From a virus (Duplodnaviria; Caudoviricetes): a stretch of 64,000 bases of DNA. Shown here one piece after another: positions 56,525-62,523 of the stretch. Both the position numbers and the translations under genes were made by a program. Where the stretch lies: positions 94,597 to 158,596 of the IMG/VR virus record IMGVR_UViG_3300020050_012045; one strand, written 5' to 3'. The notes beneath the pieces are model-generated. The model saw only the letters and a program-made list of their open reading frames with translations. It was not told the origin of the DNA and made no database searches. Positions within the stretch are counted from its first letter, which is position 1. Every line of letters begins with the position of its first letter.

Positions 56525-57010
56525 TTACATAACCATTAAAGTAGATGCTTCAAATATAAACAGGTTGTAGTATTGGCTCTTACTGCCTGGCAGTTTTCCC
56601 TGAAAATGGCCTTCATCGATTCGCCTCTGAGCTTCGTCGATGTCGATCTTTCCGTCATAGTAATCAAACGCCCATTCGGCTACTCGCAACTCTGGACGAA
56701 TCCCCTGGTCGGTCATCTTTGCTCCAGGCTTACGATTGACGCTTCGTTGCTCACGAAAAGCAATCCGCAAACACTTTAGTCTGGACATTGCGATGTTTCG
56801 CTTATAACTGCCCGCCTTAGCAAACATCATTCTGGTCGTTACTAATCCCGGAGATATTACCTTGCTAAGGTCTTGCATCGCGGCAAGCTCTCGGCAAGTG
56901 TTGAGTTGTTGCTTGTGACTTGGTTCCCATCTTGGGACCAGCGCCTCTCTATCTTTGTGAACTCTATCAATTTGAACAAAAGCTTCGTTGAGTTTTTCGG
57001 AAACTTTCAT
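56525..57010 (-). CDS. Hypothetical protein
   Basis: 161 aa, coupled. Confidence 0.5.
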   Translation of the reverse strand: MKVSEKLNEAFVQIDRVHKDREALVPRWEPSHKQQLNTCRELAAMQDLSKVISPGLVTTRMMFAKAGSYKRNIAMSRLKCLRIAFREQRSVNRKPGAKMTDQGIRPELRVAEWAFDYYDGKIDIDEAQRRIDEGHFQGKLPGSKSQYYNLFIFEASTLMVM

Positions 57011-58500
57011 AGCTCACCCTTGATTTGCTTAACAGGAAACTGGCAGTACGTCAATCGCTCCCTGAGGTGGCGCTTGAATGGGTTGTGCGTTGGTCCAAAC
57101 GCCGGGATCTCGATATCAAAGTCAATGAAGTTGAAGTAGTCTTTACCTGGCACCTTACGGGTTCCACGTCCCATTGACTGGCGGAACTTAATCTCGGACT
57201 TGCCACCCTGAAGGTAAATGATCGTTCCAACCGGGCGAGTATCTGTCCCGGTCGAGATACAGGATGTTCCAATCAAGATCGGAAGCTTACCAGCGTTGAA
57301 CTGAGCGACCAGTGCGTCTGGGTCAGACTTTTGGAACTCCTTAGGAAGGGTTTTAGCTGACGCTTCGGTCGTACCACCATGAGCAAACCCAAACTCGTGC
57401 TGAAGATGTGGGTAGATATATTGGAACTGTGTCACTTGGTCCAGCAAGATGAGAACCTGGTGACCTTGCTTTTCGACAAACATATTCGCTAACCGCGCAG
57501 CGGCCTTCCCTACGTTAGGGTTGGAATAGAAGTGAGGGTCCGCCATAGCAAGGAAGTCAGAGCTGGAGTACTCCGAGTACGAAGGCACCGTGCATACAAA
57601 ATGACGAGGCTCAGCCAGAAAGCCTTCTTTGACCAGCTCGGGAAGGTCTTTGCGATGAACAGTCGGTCCGATGATACCTTCTAGTAGCATGTCTTTGCCG
57701 TCGTTGCGAAGCTGGGTAGCGGACACGAAGAAACGGTAAGGCGCTTGCGGACATACGTTCAGAGCGACGGTGCTGACCGTTTTTGCGCCGAGGGTGTGTG
57801 ATTCGTCAACAATCAGCACTTGGACCTCGGAAAACAATTTGGCTGCATCCGTCCCTGGAGTTACCCGAACAAGTGAGCCGACAATCCCTACCGTGATGAG
57901 CTTTTTGTTGTCTTTTTTGCCATCGCCGTACAATCCGACTCTCTTCGTTCCGAACGCAGAGGTTAGTTGCTTGAGTAGTTGCATCGCAATTGAGCGCGAT
58001 GGGGCCGCCACGAGGGTCTTGAGACCAAGGCGTTTGATGAGATTTTCCAATATCTTGGATTTACCTGCACCTGTACTGTGCTCAATTGAGCCGTGTTTTA
58101 CCCTTAGAAGAGCTTCCACCGCTTCTTCCTGGTAATACCGCATCTTTTCAGTGGGTACTGTGTGCCACGGTAAAGACTTCGGCTCTGGATACTCGATATT
58201 GTTCTTGACTGGGCACCCTAGCCCCTCAAGCGTAGATGCCAGACCTGACGGCAGGATTAAGGTGCCAAGATCGTCGTATTCTAGCAAAGAGACATTGACG
58301 AGCTTCTTTAGGCGATTGCACTCCTCCTCAAACGCTTCTTGACCGTTTTTGTTGGCGTACCAGCGGTTCTGGCGGAAGCGCTTAACAGCAAAGTCAGCCG
58401 CTTGATCCTTGTAGGTGAACGCCTTAGTGAGCTTGCTCCATTCCTGGTCAGTAAACTCAGTGATCCCAAGGTGGGCCGGGGTGAGGTATGTGGCTTTCAT
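57007..58500 (-). CDS. SF2 DNA helicase (UvsW-like)
   Basis: RYYQ, TGAGKS, VDESH, SAT, TGTD, QSMGRGTR. Confidence 0.92.
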   Translation of the reverse strand: MKATYLTPAHLGITEFTDQEWSKLTKAFTYKDQAADFAVKRFRQNRWYANKNGQEAFEEECNRLKKLVNVSLLEYDDLGTLILPSGLASTLEGLGCPVKNNIEYPEPKSLPWHTVPTEKMRYYQEEAVEALLRVKHGSIEHSTGAGKSKILENLIKRLGLKTLVAAPSRSIAMQLLKQLTSAFGTKRVGLYGDGKKDNKKLITVGIVGSLVRVTPGTDAAKLFSEVQVLIVDESHTLGAKTVSTVALNVCPQAPYRFFVSATQLRNDGKDMLLEGIIGPTVHRKDLPELVKEGFLAEPRHFVCTVPSYSEYSSSDFLAMADPHFYSNPNVGKAAARLANMFVEKQGHQVLILLDQVTQFQYIYPHLQHEFGFAHGGTTEASAKTLPKEFQKSDPDALVAQFNAGKLPILIGTSCISTGTDTRPVGTIIYLQGGKSEIKFRQSMGRGTRKVPGKDYFNFIDFDIEIPAFGPTHNPFKRHLRERLTYCQFPVKQIKGEL

Positions 58501-59600
58501 GAGGTTTTGCTTTCATCTTCAAACAGCCAAGCTGTGGCGGCGTCTTTGTTACTAAGGTCTTCCTTATCTGAAGACTTTTGACGGTTAGCATTAAGCAGTT
58601 CTTCGATACCGTTAGCGGTCTGACGTTCTTGCAATTCAACCTCTGATAATGATTTACGAGGGAGGTAGTCAGTAATATCGTCAAACCACTTGTAATTCGC
58701 GCCAGCAATCACACCATCGTGGAATTCCGTCATGGTTAGAAGCTCCGCATTGTCGTCAAGAGAGTTCATGTACTTATCATAAGCACGATTCAAGTCTCGA
58801 TAGAAGTGCTTGAAATCAATCTGCATCTCTTTTGCTTTTTCGTCCGCAAAATTCTGAAGTTGCTCACCTATCAATCCCCAAAAACCTTCGCTGTGTTGCC
58901 CTAGCTGGGCAAATTGAGGAAGGGTGAGGCGGTAGCGGATAAGTTCATCAAGTTTGGCTTCAAGGTTACACTCGCCCCGTGTCGCACGCCAAGTAGGAAA
59001 CCGGACAGCCCCCTCCTTAAGGACATTCTCTCTGAAGTTTTGCTTAATGTCTACGTTGATACTGGCGATGTCCAGAATCTCCTTTGGTAAGCTATGTTTT
59101 GCCTTGGTTTTTTCTGAGTGTTTACGAAATTTATCTACCAGTTCAGCTTCAGAGGTAGTCCTGTTTTTGGAGATAAACGCCTCAGGGAGTGGCGGAGCAA
59201 CCGCTTTGTCTTCGCGTTCCTTCAAAGCTTTTCGTGCCCGCTCCTTCTCTAGGAGTTGGGTTTCTTGAACTTTGACAACTAATTTTCTAAGCGGAGCTAT
59301 GCTAATCACCTTCAACGACAAACCAGAATGCTTAGTTTTTTTGAAAATTTCAATGAATCCAACCTCAAGAAGACTGGATAGAACTCTAGCTACAGTCTTG
59401 GCGTTTAGGTTCAGCTCATTACCTATCTGTCCATCCGTCAAATCTCCATGAGGGTAACGCTCAAGTAAGAGCGCTATCAATGCGATCTCGGCAGTTGAAA
59501 GGTTGTAAGCCGAGATAAGTTTACACATTCCTCTAGGCCACTTTGTGTAAGACTTCACCTCTCCGTTTGTCCAGTCTAAGTCATTTTTCTCTTGCGTCAT
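58497..59600 (-). CDS. HTH protein, putative replication initiator
   Basis: N-terminal wHTH (QIGNELNLNAKTVARVLSSLLEVGFI); adjacent to helicase and repeat region. Confidence 0.6.
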   Translation of the reverse strand: MTQEKNDLDWTNGEVKSYTKWPRGMCKLISAYNLSTAEIALIALLLERYPHGDLTDGQIGNELNLNAKTVARVLSSLLEVGFIEIFKKTKHSGLSLKVISIAPLRKLVVKVQETQLLEKERARKALKEREDKAVAPPLPEAFISKNRTTSEAELVDKFRKHSEKTKAKHSLPKEILDIASINVDIKQNFRENVLKEGAVRFPTWRATRGECNLEAKLDELIRYRLTLPQFAQLGQHSEGFWGLIGEQLQNFADEKAKEMQIDFKHFYRDLNRAYDKYMNSLDDNAELLTMTEFHDGVIAGANYKWFDDITDYLPRKSLSEVELQERQTANGIEELLNANRQKSSDKEDLSNKDAATAWLFEDESKTS

Positions 59601-59778
59601 TTAGCTCGTTTTCTCCTTGATCTTACTTTACCGATAAGCAGGTAAAAATGTCAACACCTAAACGTAGAAATAGACCAACACCTTCAATTAAGCGCTTACA
59701 TAAAACGTAAACAAGCAGTGTTTTTGATACTGTTTTCTTCTATGTCACATGGAAAATTTGTCGTGTTGACTGTGCCAC

Positions 59779-59874
59779 AAAACGGTATACATGGTGGAAG
59801 TTTTTTCCGCGATGGTACCAACGCCTTCGCCTAAAACGGTATACATGGTGGAAGTTTTTTCCGCGATGGTACCA
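59779..59874. repeat. Two perfect 42-bp direct repeats (59779-59820, 59833-59874), putative origin iterons
   Basis: AAAACGGTATACATGGTGGAAGTTTTTTCCGCGATGGTACCA x2 with 12-bp spacer. Confidence 0.9.
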
Positions 59875-59964
59875 TAAATGCCGGACCTCTTTAACACTCT
59901 TAACATTCTTAGAGATTATAGAAGAAAATAGAAAGAGTAGCAAGGAGGAGTAGCAAATTTTAGA

Positions 59965-60350
59965 CCGTGTCGGCCTACGGCACGCCCCGGGATGATCGCT
60001 GGGTGTTAGCGTGCTTATAAAATAATTAAGCGCTTAAACAGAAGCGGAACGTTTGGGATTTCTATCGAAATCTTTTTGGGAACGGGGAGGGGAATGTTAA
60101 GCCGAACGTGACCTTCGGTCAGACGGTCAATTGCCAAAGAGACGCCCTACGGGCTGACTTCACCCTACGGGATGAAGTCGAGATGTTTAGCCTAGCTCTC
60201 GCTTCCTTACGTTGCGAGGCCCTATCGGGCGGGAGCGGGATCGGGAACGCAGTAAGTTTACAGTGACCTTCATGGCCTACGGCCTAACAAGTCACTTCCC
60301 TGTAAGCTATTGGTCTGTCAGAAGCATTGACCAAGACTCTTCGAGTCTAA
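59965..60350 (-). other. Structured ssDNA-type element with cGNAg/cGATAg-capped hairpins
   Basis: Six stems with GTA/GAA triloops and two with GATA loops on the minus strand. Confidence 0.65.
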
Positions 60351-60367
60351 CCCTGCTAGGAGCAACG

Positions 60368-62176
60368 ATGAGCGTTCAATACCGTAAAGTGAAATCAGTG
60401 GCCAAAGACGTTTTGCCTAAAGGCGAGAAGTTACGCCAAATTGTTCTTAAAACAATGGCTTCTATCGCCGCCAACGTTGGAGCTACGCTCGGGCCTGGCG
60501 GTTTGCCGGTTTTGATTGAACGTCAAGAAACTGGTTTTCCCAACATTGTGACTAAAGATGGGGTTACGGTTTTTCGCTATTTGGGGTTTTCCAACCCGTT
60601 CGCTCACTCGATTATGGAAACCGCTCGTGATGCGTCTGTACGTACCGCAACTGAAGCAGGCGATGGCACGACTTCGGCCACCGTTCTTGCAGAGGCTTTA
60701 GTTCGCAAAACTGACGAGTTTGTAATTAACAATCCTAAGGTTTCGCCACAAAAAGCCGTTCGAGTGATTGAAAACTGGTATCGCACCGAAGCCGAACCGT
60801 TCCTTAAGGCCAAAGCCATCAGCGTCACTGAAGAGATTCAGCGTGCTGTTGCCCTTTGCTCCTCGAACGGTGATGTTGAGTTGACTGACGCTGTCATGAA
60901 ATGCTTCGAGATCACTGGCGATGAAGGTAACGTCACGATTGTAGAGGCTGGTGGGCCTTCTGGTTACCAAATCGAGCAACTTAAGGGGTACGCTGTAGGT
61001 ACAGGGTATGAAGAATCCTGTCGGCGGTTTTATCCAGCTTTTGTAAACGACAAGTCCAACAACCGGACAATCATGAAGAATCCGGTGTTTGTGTTGTACT
61101 ACGGCAATATCACTGATATTTCTTCGCTAATCCCTCTGATGGATTCAATTGACGCTCAGCATCAAGCTGATAACTCACGACCACGTGATGTAGTGGTTTG
61201 TGCTTTGAGTTTTTCAGAAGGTGTGTTGGGTTCCTTGGCGGCCAACTTCCAAGAGCCCGGAACTCTAAACGTGTTTCCGTTGGTTATTCCGGTTAACGCC
61301 GTCCACAATAGCCAGCTTCACTTTCTCCAAGACCTTCAGGCGGTCACTGGTGCCGATATTCTTGATCCAATGACTCGCTCCCTGGAGCGGGCAACAGCGG
61401 CCAACGTAGGGCAGCCTCTTGAGTATTTTGAGTCTTTGCGGTACCGATCTAACATTGTTGGTCAAACCGACGAGTCATTGCTGATGGCTCGAATTGAAGA
61501 ACTTAAGGTTCAGCTCCAGAACCCAGAGTCGATTTACGAAAAAACTATGTTGGAAGAGCGAGTCGCCAAATTGACAGGTGGAATTGCTCGCCTGACCGTG
61601 GTTGGTCCATCGGCTGCCGAGATCCGTGAGAAGAAAGACCGTGCTGACGACGCTGTGTGCGGCATCCGTGGTGCTTTGAAGCATGGAGCCATACCTGGTG
61701 GTGGATGGGGTTTCTTTCAGCTTGCAAAGACTGTTAAACGTGTTTCTGAGAAGAAATCTTGGAACCCCTTTAAGAAACTTCCTCCTGCTGAATCTCTTGA
61801 GCGCAAAATCAAGTCAGAGATTATCTACCCAGCTCTGTTGGCACCCATTCGTCTGCTGATGACTAATTGTGGTTTATCAGACGAAGAAATCGAAGCCAAC
61901 TTGGCTCAAATGGCTAAAAACCCTGAAGATCCGACTAAAGCAATCGTCTGGGATGGGACGTGTGACAAGTTTGTGAAACCTGTCGAGTCTGGGATTGTGG
62001 ATTCACTTCCAGCGGTCAACGAAGCGTTGCGCAACTCGATTTCAATCGCAACCCTGCTTGGCACCCTTGGTGGAGCTATCGTGTTCCAGCGCGATGCTCA
62101 GGTCGAGCGTGAGAATTCGTCTGACAGCTACCACTACCTAGCGACCTCAAACCAACGTGACCAAGAGATTGCATAA
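60368..62176 (+). CDS. groEL: GroEL-like chaperonin
   Basis: TLGPGG, TKDGVTV, AGDGTTSATVL, ERVAKLTGG, EKKDR.DDA, PGGG; ATG 60368 with AGGAG. Confidence 0.95.
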   Translation: MSVQYRKVKSVAKDVLPKGEKLRQIVLKTMASIAANVGATLGPGGLPVLIERQETGFPNIVTKDGVTVFRYLGFSNPFAHSIMETARDASVRTATEAGDGTTSATVLAEALVRKTDEFVINNPKVSPQKAVRVIENWYRTEAEPFLKAKAISVTEEIQRAVALCSSNGDVELTDAVMKCFEITGDEGNVTIVEAGGPSGYQIEQLKGYAVGTGYEESCRRFYPAFVNDKSNNRTIMKNPVFVLYYGNITDISSLIPLMDSIDAQHQADNSRPRDVVVCALSFSEGVLGSLAANFQEPGTLNVFPLVIPVNAVHNSQLHFLQDLQAVTGADILDPMTRSLERATAANVGQPLEYFESLRYRSNIVGQTDESLLMARIEELKVQLQNPESIYEKTMLEERVAKLTGGIARLTVVGPSAAEIREKKDRADDAVCGIRGALKHGAIPGGGWGFFQLAKTVKRVSEKKSWNPFKKLPPAESLERKIKSEIIYPALLAPIRLLMTNCGLSDEEIEANLAQMAKNPEDPTKAIVWDGTCDKFVKPVESGIVDSLPAVNEALRNSISIATLLGTLGGAIVFQRDAQVERENSSDSYHYLATSNQRDQEIA

Positions 62177-62523
62177 TGCCACTGTTTTACTTCGGCTGCC
62201 CTAATTCAGAGTGTCAAGAGCAGTTCTTCAAAATGACTGATATAGCTACGGCCCGTGGTGGATACAAGTGCCCTAAGTGTGACACTGTGTCACCTAGAAC
62301 ACCTAAAGCTCCTTCTAGCCGGGTAGTGGAGGTGGTTGACAACGGCATGATGGCTAAGCGCCTAGAGCGCCTTCCTGAAGCTGGTAAGGTGTTCAAAGAA
62401 CGAGAAAAAGCTAACGATATCAAGCGCAAGGCTGAAACCGGCTACTACCGATTGTCTCCTGAGGATCAAGAGCAGTATGACGAAGACGAGCTTGACAATT
62501 TCGTAAAAAAGAGCATAAACTAG
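62176..62523 (+). CDS. FmdB-type zinc-ribbon protein
   Basis: MP.F.F.C....C...CPKC. Confidence 0.65.
   Translation: MPLFYFGCPNSECQEQFFKMTDIATARGGYKCPKCDTVSPRTPKAPSSRVVEVVDNGMMAKRLERLPEAGKVFKEREKANDIKRKAETGYYRLSPEDQEQYDEDELDNFVKKSIN

Follow-up and report, generated by a model that had tools for sequence, protein, structure and literature searches.

We analysed a 64,000-nucleotide (nt) stretch of viral DNA (the window), which forms the final 64 kb of a 158,596-bp contig with terminal repeats (IMG/VR record IMGVR_UViG_3300020050_012045, positions 94,597 to 158,596), and focused on an array of eight short hairpins directly upstream of a gene for a phage GroEL-like chaperonin. Judged by comparison with related sequences, the array is a real, conserved and internally duplicated non-coding element that is limited to one clade of uncultured Mx1-like phages. 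Our preferred reading, to which we assign a probability of roughly 0.45, is that it encodes a structured RNA made from the plus strand, either as a distal leader of GroEL or as a separate small RNA. A folded RNA appears more likely than a folded single-stranded DNA, a choice that sequence alone cannot settle.

Hairpins, duplicated modules and conservation of pairing

A preliminary description of this DNA had reported eight hairpins with minus-strand loops of the form GNA or GATA, and we confirmed all eight. They are listed below as read on the plus strand, with no strand assigned to hairpins 1, 4 and 5; related loci (L numbers) are GroEL loci drawn from the protein collection, IMG/VR and JGI metagenomes.

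59973-59981: hairpin 1, GCC-TAC-GGC; kept in L144, L145 and L147 even with its flanks replaced
60057-72: hairpin 2, GATTTC-TATC-GAAATC, with a UAUC cap (direct reading)
60109-21: hairpin 3, TGACC-TTC-GGTCA (direct reading)
60144-60154: hairpin 4, GCCC-TAC-GGGC; the aligned counterpart in L003 is GAGCC-TAC-GGCTC
60156-60179: hairpin 5, a 7-bp outer stem around CCC-TAC-GGG at 60163-71 (folding)
60219-30: hairpin 6, GCCC-TATC-GGGC, with a UAUC cap (direct reading)
60262-96: hairpin 7, two-tier, GGCC-TAC-GGCC (60274-84) inside AGTGAC/GTCACT (direct reading)
60334-60348, plus strand: hairpin 8, AGACTC-TTC-GAGTCT, in the short GroEL leader (direct reading; compensatory change in L003)
60125-60131, no strand assigned: GGTCAAT, 5' arm of a predicted long-range helix that would pair with ATTGACC (60326-60332) and enclose hairpins 4-7 (RNAalifold consensus, both strands)

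All eight hairpins are closed by a C:G pair, and their minus-strand loops read GTA (four), GAA (two) or GATA (two). The preliminary description was also correct in preferring a triloop register to plus-strand UNCG: we rejected UNCG tetraloop RNA hairpins because seven of the eight stems continue only in the three-base-loop register. Hairpin 5 (60156-79) is ambiguous and is the only one in which a cUACGg tetraloop could form, at the cost of a C.A mismatch; on the plus strand its stem carries a bulged A, and on the minus strand it can be read as an uninterrupted 10-bp stem that includes a T.G wobble. An alternative 7-bp stem for hairpin 1 is disrupted in L147. The long-range helix between 60125-60131 and 60326-60332 is weakly supported, as it consists of Watson-Crick pairs only, shows no covariation and retains 4 bp in L003.

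What distinguishes the array is the class of its hairpins and their conservation rather than bulk folding energy, given that generic hairpins with any loop occur here at a density unexceptional for the genome and that the fold energy of the whole region lies moderately under shuffles (z -2.6 to -3.2). This energy is alike across both strands and for RNA or DNA, so that folding with DNA parameters, proposed earlier as a check, yielded a moderate excess of structure and no preference for strand or chemistry. Hairpins of the form C-TNC-G with stems of at least 3 bp number 36 on the plus strand of the whole 158,596-nt genome, and 6 of them fall within 59973-60348, compared to 0.086 expected (Poisson P ~5e-10); clustering of this class by chance is excluded. 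Likewise, four of the five CCTACGG heptamers on the plus strand of the genome lie within the array. Genome-wide, a hand count of UNC versus GNA triloops revealed no sense or antisense bias (28 versus 29).

By alignment, the array is built of two paralogous modules of ~105 nt, one of which contains the first of two G-tract runs and the other a canonical G-quadruplex motif:

60036-60130, plus strand: module A, with hairpin 2, a G-tract run at 60078-60092 and hairpin 3 (covariance model R1 match)
60196-60300, plus strand: module B, with hairpin 6, a G-tract run and the two-tier hairpin 7 (alignments and model R1)
60227-60245, plus strand: G3-N1-G3-N3-G3-N3-G3, the sole canonical G-quadruplex motif of the 158.6-kb genome, both strands considered

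A covariance model (R1) built from module B (60196-60300) scored module A at 13.5 bits in the window and at 14.7-16 bits in L145 and L147, and it also matched the stretch of L144 that corresponds to module A. Both modules follow the same layout of ACGUU, a CUAUCG-capped hairpin, a G-tract run (GGGANCGGG...) and a two-tier hairpin, the internal loops of which retain CAUGG and CAAG between the paralogues while the stems differ. The outer stem of module A has been deleted in the window and is present in L145 and L147, a loss that corresponds to a 59-nt indel difference between the window and these two loci. Short direct repeats further connect hairpins 1 and 7, and hairpins 4 and 5. As most of the eight hairpins are paralogues, internal duplication largely explains the uniformity of their loops. 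By sequence, 60227-60245 qualifies as potentially G-quadruplex-forming, with four tracts of at least three G, loops of 1-7 nt and conserved tracts: the tracts are invariant in all five copies (5/5), and every substitution falls in the spacers. Shuffles yield 2.4 such motifs per genome and the presence of a single one is therefore unremarkable; the second G-tract run, at 60078-92, occupies the equivalent place in module A.

The pattern of substitutions indicates that pairing is under selection. Among the near-identical copies, 37 sites vary across 60046-60367, of which only three lie in the 90 stem positions where ~10 would be expected (binomial P 0.003-0.013), and all three retain pairing. Changes of 60219 G>A and 60230 C>T are compensatory, turning G-C into A-T, and 60295 C>T converts the pair 60263:60295 from G-C to G.U on the plus strand. 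Further compensatory changes were found in hairpins 6, 7 and 8 of L003 (for example, A-T to G-C in hairpin 8, giving GGCTC-TTC-GAGCC). In an alignment of the modules fitted to the model, which comprises few and related rows (nine, four of them paralogues), 94% of cells were paired versus 22-45% in controls with the partners slid, and 12 of 18 pairs were altered on both sides. Covariation in related phages had been suggested as a test of the element, and the stems are indeed both conserved and covarying; the folded, strand-asymmetric element that was described is real. The array thus shows the compensatory maintenance of pairs by which structured RNAs are generically recognized. Wobble pairs do not call the strand, with five plus-strand G.U cells versus one A.C cell in the supported helices, arising from ~3 events versus one, which are too few and mixed.

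The array is present in three identical copies (L146, L148 and L149), in variants with a GroEL at least 99% identical (L144, L145 and L147) and in L003 (GroEL 89% identical), while L004 (66%) and L005 (63%) carry diverged analogues with a similar style of hairpin. There is no trace of it in Myxococcus phage Mx1, L001 or ~130 more distant loci, though the gene arrangement is kept, and a hairpin census of ~130 GroEL loci from metagenomes and IMG/VR revealed upstream clusters confined to the closest relatives, whose GroEL is 63% identical or more. Model R1, run on all loci, recovered the internal paralogue and no distant homologues. We found no similar DNA among 50,697 phage records and no occurrence of a conserved 19-mer in IMG/VR, and the four matches of a conserved 18-mer in 185,579 prokaryote genomes fall within the chance expectation, with R1 fitting them over the seed only. 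Searched against Rfam 15, the window yielded nothing at the gathering score, and relaxing the threshold to an E of 5 for 59600-60420 brought up no match either; ARAGORN identified no transfer RNA (tRNA) or transfer-messenger RNA (tmRNA).

Relatives differ by whole-module indels of 59, 26 and 19 nt. L147 encodes a GroEL protein identical to that of the window, yet its upstream region is 74% identical; comparison of L147 1-230 with window 59844-60045 revealed one block replaced outright, with a recombination boundary inside the array. Several other identities were tried and rejected. Indels that separate the relatives (59, 26, 19 and 1 nt) argue against a coding role for the small open reading frames (ORFs) at 60108-60266 (+) and 60015-60137 (-). 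At 60312-60327, the spacing in the window would suit a sigma-54 promoter, but neither L003 nor L147 retains it. CRISPR-repeat mimics, repetitive extragenic palindromes and bacterial interspersed mosaic elements (REP/BIME), retron msr/msd and intrinsic terminators were dismissed on the basis of variable stems, no associated gene and no U-tracts.

Putative transcription signals and the choice between RNA and DNA

The features around and between the hairpins are as follows, promoter-like sites being consensus matches:

59779-59874, no strand assigned: an iteron- or operator-like pair of perfect 42-nt direct repeats, 54 nt apart, left of the array (repeat search)
59891-59919, plus strand: promoter-like site TTAACA-17-GATTAT, pointing into the array (consensus scan; putative function)
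59920-59957, plus strand: polypurine (A/G-rich) tract ahead of hairpin 1 (direct reading)
60026-60037, no strand assigned: perfect 12-bp palindrome TTAAGCGCTTAA, of a type bound as duplex DNA; second copy at 59687-59698
60303-60310, plus strand: TAAGCTAT, a -10-type promoter-like motif between hairpins 7 and 8 (conservation; putative function)

Hairpins 1-7 are flanked by the distal and the proximal promoter-like sites, and hairpin 8 lies in the short leader. The distal site is ~45 nt ahead of hairpin 1 and recurs in L147 as CTAACA-16/17-AATAAT at the equivalent place despite diverged surrounding sequence, and a polypurine tract of the AAGAAGAAAG type precedes the array in L003, L144, L147 and L005. 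In the consensus scan, no minus-strand promoter-like site was found to the right of the array; both minus-strand sites found are to its left. In favour of a plus-strand RNA, the distal site and the polypurine tract lead into the array from the left, with no promoter-like site to the right on the minus strand. Also counted in its favour are purine-rich linkers and a purine excess of 53-59% on the plus strand with positive GC and AT skew in all five lineages, and the orientation of the TNC-capped hairpins relative to GroEL, which is the same in L003, L004 and L005. The protection of the stems from substitution, the covariation of the paralogous modules and the larger number of plus-strand G.U than A.C cells were counted on this side as well. 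Short stems of 3-6 bp form easily while a transcript is being made but lack the length for extrusion from duplex DNA. The hairpins of phage N4 need 5-7 bp, gyrase and single-stranded-DNA-binding protein (SSB) (PMC4496689). As a precedent for the RNA reading, intergenic and leader-derived small RNAs have been found in large phages once transcripts were mapped (PMC11512511).

The GroEL-proximal motif looks like a -10 element. TA(A/G)GCTAT is common to L003, L004, L005, L006, L140 and L142, and more distant relatives have GCTATA, GCTAGA or GGTATACT at 5-35 nt ahead of the GroEL start. Several relatives leave no room for a Shine-Dalgarno sequence after the motif, which suggests leaderless GroEL mRNAs. 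We also observed a motif upstream of GroEL (TTCGCTATA, GCTAGA or GGTATACT) family-wide, in L091, L113, L114, L137, L061, L015 and others.

In the mechanism that we propose, transcription would start at the sigma-70-like promoter near 59891-59919 and yield ~370-440 nt of RNA, either a structured non-coding RNA in its own right or a long leader distal to the gene. Its 5' part would be an unstructured polypurine tract, followed by a run of short GC-rich hairpins from the two paralogous ~105-nt modules, each of which would contribute a hairpin with a UAUC cap and, after a G-tract run, a two-tier hairpin with a UAC or UUC cap. The RNA would end at, or read through, the TAAGCTAT motif (60303-10), a second promoter-like motif that would serve the chaperonin gene. 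One candidate role is that conserved bases of the loops and internal loops (CAUGG...CAAG and CUAUCG) bind a protein of the phage or its host; control of the stability or timing of the GroEL mRNA is an alternative. We infer the transcription of the array, the ends of the transcript and its function.

Several observations weigh against this reading. Triloops are unusual caps for RNA, and no special stability is known for c(UNC)g; in DNA, by contrast, the complementary d(cGNAg) and d(cGNNAg) loops show hyperstability (PMC3201870, PMC13037366). Two wobbles favour the minus strand (position 60268:60290 and the T.G pair of hairpin 5), the one helix specific to the plus strand is disrupted by G60235>A in L144 and L147, and neither folding z-scores nor ensemble definition favour one strand consistently. 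A terminator was looked for and none was found, a single long GroEL leader fits less neatly with a promoter-like motif located after hairpin 7, and the sample is small (five sequence-distinct copies and two diverged analogues). Folding each hairpin with DNA parameters gave equal energies on both strands, with no GNA bonus visible in the results of that parameter set.

A role for the array in a replication origin, whether through a priming transcript that forms an R-loop or G-quadruplex or through SSB-resistant GNA mini-hairpins on the minus strand that load a primosome, seems rather unlikely. Its second form is close to the preliminary description, in which the hairpins were a multi-branched single-stranded DNA structure for primase or helicase loading: the minus strand would fold when an adjacent origin is unwound, and cGNAg and cGNNAg mini-hairpins would mark the loading site of a primase or primosome in the manner of phage G4 oric and RSF1010 ssiA. 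We consider this form unlikely, even though its chemistry was correctly recognized. All eight minus-strand loops are C:G-closed GNA or GNNA, belonging to classes whose hyperstability in DNA persists with stems as short as 2-3 bp (PMC3201870, PMC13037366), triloops predominate, which is typical of DNA hairpins, and hairpin 3 contains CCGAAGG, the heptamer of the ssiA mini-hairpin (PMC13037366). The location beside iterons was also borne out, as the 42-nt iteron-like repeats, a winged-helix gene and a helicase gene adjoin the array, and the phage encodes a Toprim-domain ORF. However, relatives do not keep the GNA identity, and a lack of loop conservation had been named among the points that could refute the idea: the minus-strand loops become ATA in L003, AAA in L147, TGAA in a paralogous hairpin, and CGAA and TAT in L004, and strong cGAAg hairpins occur on the opposite (plus) strand in L004 and L140. 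Duplication of the hairpin unit largely accounts for the loop uniformity, the known single-strand initiation (ssi) signals have 1-3 hairpins rather than at least eight, and the change of 60263:60295 to G.T is a C.A mismatch on the minus strand. Moreover, the element is missing from Mx1 and ~130 relatives with the same gene arrangement, an origin-type GC-skew switch is absent at the array, and energies computed with standard DNA parameters do not differ between the strands and so cannot separate the models. A plus-strand promoter-like site and polypurine tract precede the hairpins, and DNA rather than RNA is not supported as the folding species.

A very doubtful variant joins transcript and origin: G-rich structured RNA made beside the iterons would form an R-loop or G-quadruplex hybrid with the C-rich template, priming or activating the origin much as for ColE1 RNA II, T4 oriF/oriG or mitochondrial conserved sequence block II (CSB II). 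The promoter-like site does point away from the iteron-like repeats, replication-type genes are adjacent, GC skew reaches +0.33 at 59900-60099, and two conserved G-tract runs, one of them the only canonical G-quadruplex motif of the genome, lie on the non-template strand. This argument is nonetheless wholly positional and compositional, the G-tracts being weaker and not strand-specific in L004 and L005, one motif per genome being within the shuffle expectation of 2.4, and the origin itself being only presumed. It is also quite unlikely that the array acts as duplex DNA or has no selected fold, either as a set of protein sites (CCTACGG cores and TTAAGCGCTTAA palindromes) or as palindromic modules spread and perfected by template switching or recombination in a hypervariable intergenic region. 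CCTACGG recurs in a single orientation, in L006 with only a 2-bp arm, duplex-type palindromes are interspersed among the hairpins, and the region is a mosaic (74% upstream identity in L147 with an identical GroEL, and indels of 59, 26 and 19 nt). Yet the arms differ while complementarity is kept in 7/8 CCTACGG-type sites, which argues for pairing rather than a fixed duplex motif, substitutions shun the stems, and the internal-loop sequences are kept between the paralogous modules. A plus-strand RNA remains our preferred reading of the array.

The 42-nt repeats and their flanking palindromes, considered separately from the hairpins, have the appearance of a site bound as duplex DNA, such as an operator or an origin, and an origin at the repeats is plausible from the sequence. 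The palindrome TTAAGCGCTTA(A/C) flanks the repeats on both sides, and a related TTAAGCG-CCCG-CGCTTAA is found upstream of GroEL at L004 2772-2789. Relatives have short direct repeats of their own upstream of GroEL (ATAACCAT..., AGCCGCGCAGTCA..., TGTGTCATGGTGACACA and CAGGCAGCCAATCAACAC; L140 1-40, L142 1-40, L006 700-815 and L059 520-650), and several Logan contigs terminate exactly within such repeats. Across the loci compared, the iteron-like region is conserved in position and not in sequence.

Genomic setting

The array sits in a 768-nt intergenic gap between divergent genes, with these neighbours:

57010-58500, minus strand: superfamily 2 (SF2) helicase gene, next after the 367-amino-acid (aa) protein gene (matches ResIII/DEAD)
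58500-59600, minus strand: gene for a 367-aa protein with an N-terminal winged helix-turn-helix (DnaD_N and TrmB matches under the cut-offs)
60368-62176, plus strand: phage GroEL-like chaperonin gene directly downstream of the array (PF00118 8.9e-35; phrog_5725 4.9e-80)

From left to right, the gap contains a sigma-70-like promoter of the leftward gene, a TTAAGCGCTTAC near-palindrome and the 42-nt repeats, followed by the plus-strand promoter-like site, the polypurine tract, the hairpin array and the short GroEL leader. The chaperonin gene starts at ATG 60368, preceded by the Shine-Dalgarno sequence AGGAG (60358-62), and the nearest cultured relative is Myxococcus phage Mx1 (49% GroEL identity). 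Matches of the 367-aa protein in PDB and NCBIfam are winged-helix regulators only. The Toprim-domain ORF of the phage matches Toprim_2, and no match to the DnaB_C profile was found in the phage. GC skew is above zero on the plus strand along the whole genome regardless of gene orientation, and the cumulative skew has no V shape; whole-genome skew thus revealed no switch marking an origin at the gap. AT skew flips with gene orientation at the gap, with sign changes near 92 kb and 154.5-156 kb.

Some further features of the locus and genome were observed. A 115-aa ORF at window 62176-62520 abuts the GroEL stop and has a weak FmdB-type zinc-ribbon match; the ORF downstream of GroEL is kept family-wide at that place, with Zn_ribbon_8 matches in relatives. 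The GroEL genes of L004 (3001-5721) and L005 (3001-5778), encoding P0003 and P0004, are ~300 codons longer with Hom_end/LAGLIDADG matches, which indicates an intein or homing-endonuclease insertion within a phage chaperonin. Outside the window, two more stretches of ~900 nt (G000:C1 82525-83487 and 87202-88108) are free of open frames of at least 100 codons and may hold other non-coding elements.

Significance and comparison with known systems

If the array is an RNA, it would be a structured RNA absent from current catalogues, duplicated internally and lying where the replication genes of an Mx1-like phage meet the chaperonin gene. To our knowledge, almost nothing is known about regulation in this group of phages, and the conserved bases of the loops and internal loops hint at a specific partner that binds them. 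If it is instead a DNA element, it would bring mini-hairpin initiation signals, known from small single-stranded phages and from plasmids, into a large phage with double-stranded DNA, and a true origin here would have an architecture of a type not described for large tailed phages. The distribution is narrow, being confined to one clade of uncultured phages. The array provides a test case in which loop chemistry points to DNA and context points to RNA.

The closest resemblance on the DNA side is to the ssi mini-hairpins d(GCGNAGC) and d(GCGNNAGC) of G4, St-1 and alpha3 oric and of RSF1010 ssiA, which share with the minus strand of the array C:G-closed GNA or GNNA loops on very short GC stems. 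Similarity to RSF1010 extends to the CCGAAGG of ssiA in hairpin 3 and to hairpins that adjoin iteron-like repeats, as in oriV (PMC13037366, PMC3201870). Unlike ssi signals, which have one to three hairpins, the array has at least eight in two duplicated modules and belongs to a 158-kb double-stranded phage without a known single-stranded stage; its relatives do not keep the GNA loops, and a cognate primase and priming activity would be hypothetical for it. Cruciform or N4-type promoters, also proposed in the preliminary description, are unlikely. The promoters of the N4 virion RNA polymerase are likewise three-base loops on short, GC-rich, C:G-closed stems on one DNA strand (PMC4496689, PMC13037366), but they have a 5-7-bp stem, a purine at the loop centre, fixed -10G, -8G and +1C, a single hairpin for each transcription unit and an injected polymerase of 3,500 aa (PMC4496689). 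By contrast, four of the six triloops of the array are T-centred, its stems are 3-6 bp without shared bases, eight hairpins occur in 380 nt, and the largest open frame of the phage is 1,938 codons versus the ~3,500-aa virion RNA polymerase. A PF00940 search of the phage returned no hit but was silent on its controls too, and so carries no weight.

On the RNA side, the array resembles the small RNAs of phages 201phi2-1 and phiKZ identified by ONT-cappable-seq, which are also hairpin-rich intergenic islands, conserved in related phages and not in Rfam (PMC11512511). Those RNAs have mapped 5' and 3' ends, whereas the array is longer, internally duplicated, known from sequence alone and without sequence or model similarity to them. 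Tetraloop hairpins of the C(UUCG)G and C(UACG)G type were reportedly described by Tuerk et al. in 1988 from intercistronic regions of phage T4 and from ribosomal RNA (rRNA). Seven of the eight array hairpins contain CUNCGG on the plus strand, with N restricted to A and U as it is in the UNCG loops found most often, but the stems are palindromic about a three-base centre and the tetraloop register leaves 1-2 pairs, such that only hairpin 5 and CGC-UUCG-GCG of L004 fit. Finally, ColE1 RNA II and the T4 origins oriF and oriG involve promoter-fired structured transcripts with G-rich segments beside replication functions. The array shares with ColE1 RNA II and oriF/oriG a promoter-like site, G-rich segments and replication neighbours, while the hybrid, RNase H processing and the origin would be only hypothetical for the array.

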